From positions 1 through 16,488 of IMG/VR virus record IMGVR_UViG_2778261569_000010: DNA of 16,488 bases; one strand, given 5' to 3'. Positions 6,001 to 9,000 of this stretch are shown here, one piece after another. Within the stretch, counting starts at the first letter, position 1. The number at the start of each line of letters is the position of its first letter. Position numbers: made by a program. Source of the DNA: a virus (Duplodnaviria; Heunggongvirae; Uroviricota; Caudoviricetes).

Positions 6001-9000
6001 ATCGCGGATGTCAGCACGAACTTTCTCAGGGTTGATGCTGAACAGCCATCCATTTAACTTCTTCAAAGGAAGGCAGAGTAGCTTACGAAGCTTACCATCA
6101 GCGGCAACCATGTTCATATGAACACAGTTGAATTTGCTAATCTGCTTCATGAGTTTTGTTTGCTGCGTTGACCAGCTCATTCCAAGGTTTTCAACGATTG
6201 GCTTCATCGCAACATATGCAACTCCGGCAGCCATGGCGGTGATAATTTGCTGACCGTTGAATGGTACGTAAGAGGTGTTCACTGCTTCTAAAATTGCTAT
6301 ACTATTCATGTTGGTTTTTCTCCACAGATTTACTGACAACCGAAGCCCTGACTGTTCCCGCAGTTGGGGCTTCAACTTTACGCGCCAATGCGCCCTTCCT
6401 TCTTAAAGCTTTCCATTACTCTCTGATAAATCTCAGAGTTAACAGACCGACCATTCTCTTCCGCCACCTTGCGTACCAAATCCAATACTTCTTTAGGCCA
6501 CCGCAAATTGAACTGCGGCATCTTGCTCATTCCTTTCATATTCACCTCACAATATAGGTCCACCGTGGACCTATTGAGAATATAGTAGAGTGCTTCTATC
6601 ATGTCAATACACTAACTTGGAGTGATGGCATGGCTAGAGATGATCCGCACTTTAACTTCCGTATGCCTATGGAAGTAAGGGAGAAATTAAAATTCAGGGC
6701 GGAGGCGAATGGGAGATCAATGAACTCCGAGTTGTTACAAATCGTCCAAGATGCTCTATCAAAACCATCGCCTGTGACTGGATATCGCGACGATGCAGAA
6801 CGACTCGCTGATGAGCAGTCCGAACTTGTTAAGAAGATGGTGTTTGATACGCTGAAGGATTTGTACAAAAAACCCACCTGACGGTGGGTTTCATAATTAG
6901 ATTTCTGGTTTCATTCTTCCAAAAACCTTTTCTATTCCTTTTTCGTATTCTTCTCTTGTCTCACTCATCGCTGCGACCCCAAGAAGCTTACCGATATGCT
7001 GACGCAAAGCCTTGACACCAATTTCAGAAAGGAACAGATGCAACTTATCAGATTGTTTTCCGTTCTCGTCTCGGCTGGCTCGAATCTGTTCAAGGATTTT
7101 ACCTTTACTCTTTGCTAGCGGGGTGTATATCTGCATGTTGGTTAGCTGCCCAAAACGAATAGGCCGTCCTTTCTCTGGCCTATTCAGGCCGTACAGTCGA
7201 TACCACTCCTCGTATAGCTCATCTGGAAATTCCTTTTCATATTGACGAGCCTCTTCACGAACAAACGCTTTGAACTCGTCAATGACAGCCTGAACTTCTG
7301 GACGATAACCAGCAAGCGCATACGCAACCCCCTTAATTCCCGCCTTAGCGGAGGCATTAATAAGTCTCTGTGCTGCGGCGGCTGCCTTTAACCGTGATTG
7401 TGGTAGATCGTCATTATCTTTGGCTTCTATTAGTGCCCTACCAATATCAACAATTGCTGTAATGTCATAACCTAACGCTTGATGAACGGTTTTAGACTTC
7501 GAAGTAAGTTGAAATTTATAGGGATTTTCCATTTTTCGCTGCAATTCTAGATCTCGGTATTTGCTCATATACTGAGCGCCAAGCAGTTGATCTAAATCCC
7601 TGGCATGTTCACCAATCCCTAGCAACTGAGATAATCCAGTTTTCGTAACAACGACAGTTTTCGACTCGTCATCCAGTACATAACATTCAGCATCAATGCC
7701 AAAATCATCTAAAAAGTTACCACGATGAGTTGCCCTGAGAATCTTACTTTTCCATCTTGCAGCAGCTGCTTTCTTTGCTATTTCAGAACGCTGCTCTTTA
7801 GTCAGCGACTTTGCGCGAGCGATCCCGCCCTTAGCTTTCCCTTCGCCACTTTTCTTTTCAGTCATAATGCAAGCACCTTTGTTGTGATTTATGCTTGCAT
7901 TATATACACTGTGCACACATACAAGCAAGCATAAAACTAAAACAAAATGCTTGCATTACAACCGCGCTACTCCAACTACACATTATCATCTGGTATCCTG
8001 CTCAAAACTAAGGAGGTTGGTGTGAAGCAATTTCTTGCTGCTATGTTCTTATTCATATCTTTTGGGGCTACAGCAGAGTGCTGGGTCGTTGGAGATATGC
8101 GCGGAATAAGCTATTCAGAACGAAATAATTTCCATCCGGAAGAAGATGGTTTTAGTGGAACATTCATCATTAAGACAAGCGGTGAAGATGCCAGCATCAC
8201 ATATTCTGGGACAGATGCGGGCGGCATGGCTTACAAAGCATTGTCTAAAAACTCCATCATAGGAATCGGCGCGAATGGCGAAACTCAACGCGTTATCGAC
8301 TCATGGGTAATACATCCTACTGGAACAGTTTTAATGTCAAAAACCATTTCCGGTTATGGAAATATGGATTCAACCAAAGCTTTTGTTGGAAAAGTAAAAA
8401 GAAAATGTTAGCGATTGAATCCAATTTCCCATACGTTACTGCTGTGTTGCCTCAGTAGCAAACAGCGGTCTGATGGCATTCGCAGCGTTATTTAGCGCTC
8501 TTTCATAGGCTGGTGTTCCTGCTTTGGTGTTTGCCAAACGAAGAAGCATATTCCTTGCGGCTTTGGACTCATACAAACGCATCATTGCACCAAAGCCAGC
8601 CTCAAGCCCCATTGATACTCCAAGAGTCGCAGTTGCGCCAATCGTCCTTATCCTGTTGGCTTGTGATTGCCCCGTCTGAGTTACTACATTTGCGGTGTCT
8701 GACCTTGCTGTTTGCTGTAGAACTTCATGAAGAGCATCAAGCTCTTTCATGTGCTTTCCAGAAAAAATAGTGTTGTAAATTTCACCGCCTGACTGAGATT
8801 TAAGCTTATTAACTTCAGTGATGAACTTGGCTGGAAAGTCACCGGCCTTTTCCGCTATTTTGCTGACGTAAGCTGCACGCATAGCATCTTTCCCTTTATC
8901 ATCCAATGCGCTCCAGATTCGTTTCACGTCAGATGGCTTTCTGCTTAATACAACGGTATTTATAAGTTCAGGACTGGCTTCACTGCTTGCCTTGTTGAGC

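Follow-up and report, generated by a model that had tools for sequence, protein, structure and literature searches.

Several phage and plasmid repressors govern their own genes through operators that recur over the core promoter, as CI and Cro of lambda do at OR, and the C repressor of P2 has two 8-bp repeats about 22 bp apart that flank the -10. In the BstA-aba system, a short DNA element is paired with a prophage protein: aba, a 63-bp element with CCCGCC direct repeats lying over the start of the coding sequence, protects the prophage from its own abortive-infection protein (Owen et al. 2021, PMC8585504). Here we describe an array of four operator-like sites in front of a gene for a 322-aa protein with a P63C domain, in the 16,488-nt stretch IMGVR_UViG_2778261569_000010 (positions 1 to 16,488 of that IMG/VR record, hereafter the window), which is the right end of a P22-like (Lederbergvirus) Escherichia coli prophage together with host DNA. 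The four sites lie in the 156 bp (7866-8021) that separate the P63C gene from a small divergent gene. The sites, and the putative expression signals with which they are interleaved, are as follows, the gene strand being that of the P63C gene.

7947-7958, site 1 (distal): gene-strand sequence TAATGCAAGCAT, core GCAAGCA, at about -60 from the predicted transcription start
7923-7932, site 2: gene-strand sequence ATGCTTGCTT, core TGCTTGC, holding a -35-like hexamer
7892-7903, site 3: gene-strand sequence ATAATGCAAGCA, over the -10/+1 region
7864-7875, site 4 (proximal): gene-strand sequence TGCTTGCATTAT, between the Shine-Dalgarno sequence and the ATG, covering two start-codon bases (7864-7865)
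7923-7928, minus strand: putative -35 TTGCTT, 18 bp upstream of the -10, with only three of six consensus matches
7899-7904, minus strand: putative -10 TATAAT, abutting site 3, its last two bases being the AT of ATGCAAGCA
7876-7880, minus strand: Shine-Dalgarno sequence AAAGG of the P63C gene, within the spacer between sites 3 and 4

By direct reading and by repeat search, ATAATGCAAGCA (7864-7875) and TGCTTGCATTAT (7892-7903) are the arms of a perfect 12-bp inverted repeat whose spacer is 16 bp long, GCAAGCAT (7925-7932) and ATGCTTGC (7947-7954) are those of a perfect 8-bp inverted repeat whose spacer is 14 bp long, and ATGCTTGCATTA is present as a direct repeat at 7891 and 7947, an offset of 56 bp. 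Every site is a 10-bp quasi-palindrome of the form ATGC-WW-GCAT with the 7-bp core GCAAGCA; from site 1 to site 4 the cores (GCAAGCA/TGCTTGC) follow one another at 23, 33 and 23 bp, and 7865-7958 as a whole is an imperfect palindrome with 34-nt arms that are 79% complementary. An earlier, sequence-only reading of the window had noted inverted repeats at this place, and its 10-bp arms (7866-7875 and 7892-7901) turn out to be the inner part of the 12-bp arms. It was right about operator-like sites but had counted four half-site pairs where there are four sites, that is, two pairs; the same geometry that it had seen in two units 56 bp apart stands as regards the shared spacing and the offset, with a core distance of 23 bp and not 24. 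TGCTTGCA occurs three times in the 16.5-kb window, always within the module. Among dinucleotide shuffles of the 156-bp intergenic region, 16/2000 gave four copies of one 7-mer and 6/2000 gave an 11-bp perfect inverted repeat; the decisive support for the sites is comparative and does not lie in these shuffle statistics.

Loci for comparison were fetched by protein rather than by motif (18 genome loci and 80 viral loci). The four-site layout lies directly upstream of the P63C ATG in 16 of the 18 genome loci, where the proteins are 43-76% identical; these 16 include loci from Klebsiella, Leminorella, Rahnella, Yersinia, Mixta, Gallionella, Sulfuricella and Pseudomonas as well as from Alcaligenaceae, Asaia, Thiobacillus, Granulosicoccus and Burkholderiales. 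The consensus layout occupies about 110 bp before the start and reads GCAAGCA(T)-N13-16-(A)TGCTTGC...TAnAAT-GCAAGCA-N12-17-TGCTTGC(A)-N0-4-ATG. A strict four-site test was passed by 60 of the 73 distinct upstream regions that had enough upstream DNA, several of the failures being due to mis-assigned start codons; the repeats are kept in orthologous loci, a point on which the sequence-only reading had made its proposal depend. The distances in these 60 modules were as follows.

Site 1 to site 2: 21-23 bp in 54/60 modules
Site 2 to site 3: 33 bp in 45/60 modules
Site 3 to site 4: 22-23 bp in 54/60 modules
End of site 4 to the ATG: 0-4 nt in 59/60 modules

At sites 1-3 the 7-bp core is unchanged in 59-60 of the 60 modules, and at site 4, where only 24 modules could be scored, in 23-24. 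The same constraint is visible over short distances, since among loci whose proteins are at least 99% identical to that of the window substitutions gather in the spacers: variation is seen in 2 of 39 core columns and in 22 of 75 columns outside the cores (Fisher p=0.003). Over long distances, the module is kept in IMG/VR homologues of 28-32% identity and in a metagenome-assembled genome of Nitrospirales, and it is carried by Burkholderia phage Bups phi1. In phage ST104, orf23, whose product is 29% identical and which lies after cI in another part of a P22-like genome, has the sites at 23/33/24 spacing. Copies of GCAAGCA/TGCTTGC are present at the P63C starts of Lodos (a Pseudomonas phage) and Pkon1 (a Paracoccus phage, in which the sites abut), and three core copies lie at the P63C start codon of the Gordonia actinophage Petra.

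The association was also examined in the reverse direction, by scanning IMG/VR with an 18-base version of one unit, ATGCAAGCA-N12-18-TGCTTGCAT, which returned at least 119 loci. Among the matches listed, a P63C start lies within 90 nt in 104 of 119; two of the remaining listed matches are cut at the locus edge, one belongs to a P63C gene disrupted after its 42nd codon, and the others are single units in unrelated contexts, as chance would give. Across 255 P63C loci (1.73 Mb), 340 units were found within the 160 nt before a P63C start and 3 elsewhere, and the window itself has no copies outside the module; the sequence-only reading had called for a motif search in this genome and in related prophages. 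The module is met in immI, in immC after cI, beside int, beside a tRNA gene, beside an IS1-like gene and in plain chromosome, and across these contexts the P63C gene is its sole constant neighbour. The invariance of the core and the linkage to P63C therefore mark the module as a selected cis element specific to the P63C gene family, kept across hundreds of phages and bacteria, and we regard it as practically certain that the module is genuine and under strong selection as a DNA control element of P63C genes.

The sites are superimposed on what appears to be a promoter. The six bases before the core of site 3 are conserved as TAnAAT (T56 A53 T45 A43 A57 T60 of 60 modules), and this consensus adjoins site 3 only, the positions before site 1 being far weaker. 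With the -10 at 7904-7899, transcription is predicted to start at the A at 7892 (minus strand), giving a 27-nt leader, and the transcript would therefore begin after the 5' arm of the proximal unit. The 33-bp distance between sites 2 and 3 places TTGCTT (7928-7923) 18 bp upstream of the -10, which matches -35/-10 geometry; the case for the proposed sigma-70-type promoter is thus made by the conserved -10 and the spacing, and not by a promoter scan. Conservation across homologues fixes the P63C start at the ATG at 7865, and homologues have a purine-rich AAGG, GGAG or GAG at the Shine-Dalgarno position. The first arm had been described as overlapping both the ribosome-binding site and the start codon, which holds for two bases of the ATG (7864-7865) and not for the Shine-Dalgarno sequence (7880-7876), which is uncovered. 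Altogether, the repeated sites coincide with the predicted core promoter and the translation start of one gene, which is the arrangement of an autogenous operator-promoter.

Start codons of these genes are often annotated too far upstream, as in the 343-aa open reading frame with a TTG start in the window (the additional part being window 7866-7928) and in ST104 orf23 (L220 1417-1452); the database cluster P0001 (339 aa, 160 members) is another overlong P63C start call. Such calls produce a 'protein' that is translated through its own operators. The module can be used to correct gene starts, since many database entries begin upstream and read through the operators.

We consider that the sites are bound by the P63C protein itself, which would repress its own gene, and put the probability of this reading at roughly 0.65. 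Autoregulation is the economical reading because the P63C gene is the only constant partner of the module. Four copies of one 10-bp operator and a sigma-70-type promoter would make up the control module of P63C-family genes; the protein would bind the sites as a multimer, for example as a dimer on each inverted pair with the pairs cooperating 56 bp apart, binding would shut off the protein's own promoter, and negative autoregulation would hold the level of P63C low and constant in the lysogen. The transcription start, P63C as the binder, repression and stoichiometry are all what we infer from sequence. The proposal of the sequence-only reading that a multimeric regulator with sequence specificity uses these places as operator-like DNA sites agrees well with the conserved module and its overlap with the predicted promoter. 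Its candidate for that regulator, the 322-aa protein, is still the best one, as the module travels with P63C genes through unrelated contexts and is found almost nowhere else, and as a subfamily typified by phage 933W has a different repeat.

The 322-aa protein matches Pfam P63C (PF10546) at residues 199-286 (E=7e-14, 52.7 bits against a cut-off of 26.1) and PHROG 2384 (E=2e-104), for which the function is given as not known. The best-conserved part of the protein is a basic N-terminal motif, GGIARAKSLTKEQRSEIAKKAAAARW, at about residues 12-38, which retains 52-78% identity in homologues whose identity across the aligned residues is about 28-50%, a degree of conservation that matches the invariance of the DNA core. 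In the 933W-type subfamily, a conserved repeat set of its own, ACGTGCA-N11-TGCACGT-N4-ACGTGCA followed by TATGAT, is found at the same place, and the N-terminal motif differs as well (...RKESSRKAxxAKKE as against ...RSEIAKKAAAARW). The homologues Midgardsormr38 ORF58 and Si3, which lie right behind a repressor gene, have neither the N-terminal motif nor the sites. Both the 933W-type repeats and these site-less, motif-less homologues fit a cognate pair of protein and site.

Some further observations concern the N-terminal motif and its distribution. The 933W-type members are L221 (933W NP_049495), L347, L368 and L376-L379, and their leader, TTCACAACACGAG, resembles that of the window family. 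In NZ_CP146670 (H64, E. coli MS 21-1), the match is confined to window 7750-8024 at 97% identity, that is, to the module and the opening 115 nt, or about 38 codons, of the P63C gene; given these limits, promoter-operator and N-terminal motif appear to be transferred together by recombination to a different P63C allele. The same basic motif, as GGxARAxxLTxEQRSEIAKKAAAxRW, also ends many stand-alone proteins about 77 aa long (P0122-P0240), being their C-terminus; the search with the N-terminal motif returned only proteins below 80 aa, and the motif was seen in those inspected. At L235 (1501-2377), a stand-alone motif protein is adjacent and convergent to a 216-aa P63C-only protein, a split version of the architecture in the window. 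An hhalign comparison of the 322-aa protein with the neighbouring Ant protein found no relation.

Several points weigh against the autoregulatory reading. No DNA-binding domain was recognised in the protein: Pfam, NCBIfam and PADLOC gave no match beyond P63C and none for residues 1-198, sequence and profile searches of the Protein Data Bank (PDB) found no relative, and comparison of two AlphaFold models (pLDDT 72 and 76, residues 43-180 confident) with PDB folds gave no match. The three stand-alone 77-aa motif proteins that were looked up have no GCAAGCA sites upstream, and the N-terminal motif alone therefore does not predict sites; some of the stand-alone motif proteins are labelled 'RNA-binding protein' by NCBI. 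Two homologues (L008 and L018) are without the canonical module, and the subfamily correlation is confounded by shared descent and is not phylogenetically independent. Finally, a scan for sigma-70 promoters and terminators listed none inside 7866-8021, the promoter being absent from the list because its -35 is weak, with 3/6 matches.

The inverted repeats could in principle work as RNA hairpins of the mRNA leader, with the proximal stem hiding the start codon (translational control) and the distal one serving as a terminator or insulator. The two units do fold as RNA, at -16.4 and -10.2 kcal/mol (z = -5.8 and -4.5), the proximal stem would take in the AUG and its loop the Shine-Dalgarno sequence, the distal unit of L009 is followed by T8, and L371 and L372 have a symmetric GCAAGCT/AGCTTGC change. 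What is kept, however, is the sequence itself and not mere pairing. In an RNAalifold analysis of 32 diverse proximal units, 0 of 8 predicted pairs had double changes, with a covariation term of +0.03; the 7-nt cores gave 37 non-pairing cells against 1 double change (each locus being counted on both strands), and the core variants TGCTTACA and TACTTGCA break pairs without compensation. In L093 and L384/385, site 4 is reversed, which abolishes pairing but keeps the quasi-palindromic protein site. The conserved -10 immediately before the 5' arm of the proximal unit would moreover leave the predicted transcript without that arm, loops of 12-18 nt are atypical of terminators, and no terminator was called in 7866-8021. 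An Rfam scan of 7600-8300 gave only sub-threshold matches to microRNA precursors, none at the gathering score, which are due to the long palindrome. From the lack of compensatory changes together with the flipped sites it follows that the module is a DNA element and not an RNA hairpin; the hairpin explanation strikes us as very improbable, and the module very probably acts at the level of DNA.

If the module is read as DNA, it might be read by some other trans-acting factor, such as a host regulator, the prophage repressor or an immI protein. In favour of this, no DNA-binding domain was recognised in P63C, and the P63C gene often lies beside regulatory genes (cI in ST104, Si3 and Midgardsormr38, mnt and arc in the window). 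The module is nevertheless found in hosts of several phyla and in unrelated contexts with P63C as its sole constant neighbour, TGCTTGCA is absent from the Pant/Pmnt region and from the rest of the window, and the 1.73 Mb of P63C loci hold almost no units elsewhere (3 as against 340 upstream), all of which makes another binder improbable. The array could also be mainly a cognate DNA target or decoy for an effector activity of P63C, after the model of aba acting against BstA, or a nucleation site. P63C genes do occupy exclusion or defence slots, directly after cI in ST104, Si3 and Midgardsormr38 and, in the window, at a position in immI that we take from the P22 map to be the sieA slot. The gene for BstA, too, follows cI and has a short cognate DNA element at the start of its locus, in variant-specific pairs (PMC8585504), and P63C subfamilies have distinct cognate repeats. 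Yet P63C shows no homology to BstA, PADLOC gave no match at E<=0.1, no defence phenotype was found for any P63C protein in the literature searched, and the sites have the appearance of a repressor operator, falling exactly on the -35, on the -10/+1 and on the ribosome-binding site. We hold a target or decoy as the main role to be unlikely; it is in any case compatible with autoregulation and not exclusive of it. A wider construction can be put on the locus, in which the GCAAGCA array and P63C form a widespread prophage accessory system with a new sequence-specific DNA reader, the array being both operator and copy-number-sensitive decoy. The reader would be either the basic motif of about 27 aa (GGxARAxxLxxxxRxxIAxKAAxxRW) or the fold-orphan domain of residues 43-180, a self-immunity like that of BstA-aba would tie an exclusion or defence activity to prophage replication, and in non-enteric bacteria the same pair would form a mobile two-gene unit together with a gene resembling an IS1-family transposase. 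We consider this a long shot.

The region was also compared with binding sites of known regulators. The absence of TGCTTGCA and its 12-mer from 6550-6630 speaks against a Mnt/Arc site, the region has no TTGC-N6-TTGC of the CII/C1 type, and the repeat motif is unlike the LexA/SOS box CTGT-N8-ACAG; the view of the sequence-only reading that the motif is not a LexA, Mnt or Arc site is thus borne out, and CII-type sites can be added to the list. Within the promoter spacer (7909-7924), there is a LexA-like CTGT-N8-ACAA with one mismatch (gene strand TTGT-N8-ACAG). One-mismatch LexA boxes are at chance level in the window (5 found, 6.1 expected), and the spacer box is kept in 27 of the 60 modules, all enterobacterial, being perfect in 1/60 (L196) and missing from many enterobacterial and all non-enteric modules.

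The genes of the window around the module are as follows.

396-1568, minus strand: penicillin-binding protein (PBP)/dacC-like host gene
2258-3325, plus strand: acyltransferase
3366-5327, minus strand: tailspike
5407-6375, minus strand: ant
6378-6602, minus strand: arc
6630-6881, plus strand: mnt
6897-7865, minus strand: gene of the 322-aa P63C-domain protein, the only gene that always accompanies the module
8022-8411, plus strand: gene of a 129-aa protein with a GTG start and a signal-peptide-like N-terminus
8436-10277, minus strand: gp16-like injection protein
10274-11689, minus strand: gp20 injection protein

The stretch 6897-8030 is 100% identical in strain ECONIH6, at least 80% of it is found in 45 of 5426 complete E. 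coli genomes, and vB_EcoP-611R6 is the sole deposited phage that closely shares this stretch. Between arc and mnt, in the immI control region (6551-6607), two promoter-like sequences face each other, a minus-strand TTGACA-17-TATATT and a plus-strand TTGAGA-17-TATCAT, in agreement with the known Pant/Pmnt arrangement of P22.

The sequence-only reading had supposed that a regulator bound here acts on both divergent promoters, and this part of it finds no support in the window, since the 129-aa gene is not a conserved partner of the module and no plus-strand promoter could be recognised within it. That gene matches PHROG 2651 (function not known), has a strong ribosome-binding site, AAGGAGG, and, according to the record of phage Emek, resembles Sf6 gene 38. 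In enterobacterial relatives its place is taken by the GGTCGCAGAGATGCGGCC terminator of a co-directional gene, and in L241 by a different small membrane-protein gene. In Emek the small gene is present without the module, and homology begins at window 7984, exactly at the TATCAT -10 (7984-7989), the only good plus-strand -10, whose -35 partner in Emek is replaced in the window; the boundary looks like a mosaic junction. A promoter scan and reading of 7925-8021 found no convincing plus-strand -35/-10 pair.

The situation may be different in non-enteric loci, where the module does lie between P63C and a divergent gene; this gene, present before P63C in every case, encodes about 290 aa and resembles an IS1-family DDE transposase (Pfam DDE_Tnp_IS1 and HTH_7; L007, L008, L010 at 1979-2866 on the minus strand, L012, L013, L014, L016, L093, L301, L383 and L384/L385). 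These genes are 48-82% identical between loci and have a conserved extra TTATGCTTGAG near their start. Non-enteric P63C may thus travel in a mobile two-gene unit, in which the sites may control both genes. Enterobacterial loci often have a near-identical rho-independent terminator, GGTCGCAGAGATGCGGCC with a T-run, before the module (L002, L004, L006, L162, L166, L196, L198, L202, L206, L209, L210, L213, L218 and L220); in ST104 it follows cI, and the window is without it. Terminator, operator-promoter and gene seem to move together as one cassette, a classic moron architecture. In L172, L214, L216 and L260, only the proximal unit is found, with TTGACT before it, and the P63C gene adjoins the 3' end of a tRNA gene at the prophage edge; in L260 the P63C gene is broken after 42 codons, with the remainder 1.2 kb away.

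P63C-domain proteins number in the thousands (1682 matches at E<=1e-3 and, in a second search, 3580 at E<=1e-5) and occur in well-studied phages such as ST104 and 933W, in slots used for exclusion and lysogenic-conversion genes. In the literature searched, neither a function of the family nor the motif has been described, the P63C domain receiving only three incidental mentions and the 10-mers appearing only in primers. An invariant 7-bp core over the gene's own promoter is the first concrete molecular handle on the P63C family, offering a predicted DNA ligand and a predicted regulatory logic. It is of use as a way into this large and uncharacterised family, and possibly into a defence system with self-recognition. 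The array itself would be an undescribed example of a well-known kind, the multi-site self-operator, with an ordinary mechanism, self-repression.

Among the systems with which the module can be compared, the Mnt and Arc operators are the nearest on the map, lying in the same P22-like immI region as small inverted-repeat operators in a short intergenic control region. However, arc, mnt and Pant/Pmnt are about 1.3 kb away, Mnt and Arc are ribbon-helix-helix proteins, and the P63C module is also present in phages without immI. BstA-aba is the nearest analogue in biological terms and resembles the P63C locus in that prophages of alpha-, beta- and gamma-proteobacteria, P22-like ones among them, encode an accessory protein after cI that is paired by variant with a short cognate element at the 5' end of its locus (PMC8585504). 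It differs in that aba overlaps the coding start whereas the P63C sites lie upstream over the promoter, in that the function of aba has been demonstrated while that of the P63C module is predicted, and in that the 322-aa protein has no Pfam match to KilA-N, which the N-terminus of BstA resembles. From the operators of phage repressors the module departs in several respects: P63C has no recognisable helix-turn-helix, ribbon-helix-helix or other DNA-binding fold, the regulator would be a protein of 322 aa with a large P63C domain of unassigned function rather than a small dedicated repressor, and the sites are 10-bp quasi-palindromes at 23/33/23 bp whose core stays fixed at about 28% protein identity and across phyla. 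In its layout it resembles them, with short repeats over the candidate regulator's own -35, -10 and +1, with sites at approximately integral helical turns, which would imply cooperative binding of a multimer, and with cognate operators that are specific to each subfamily.

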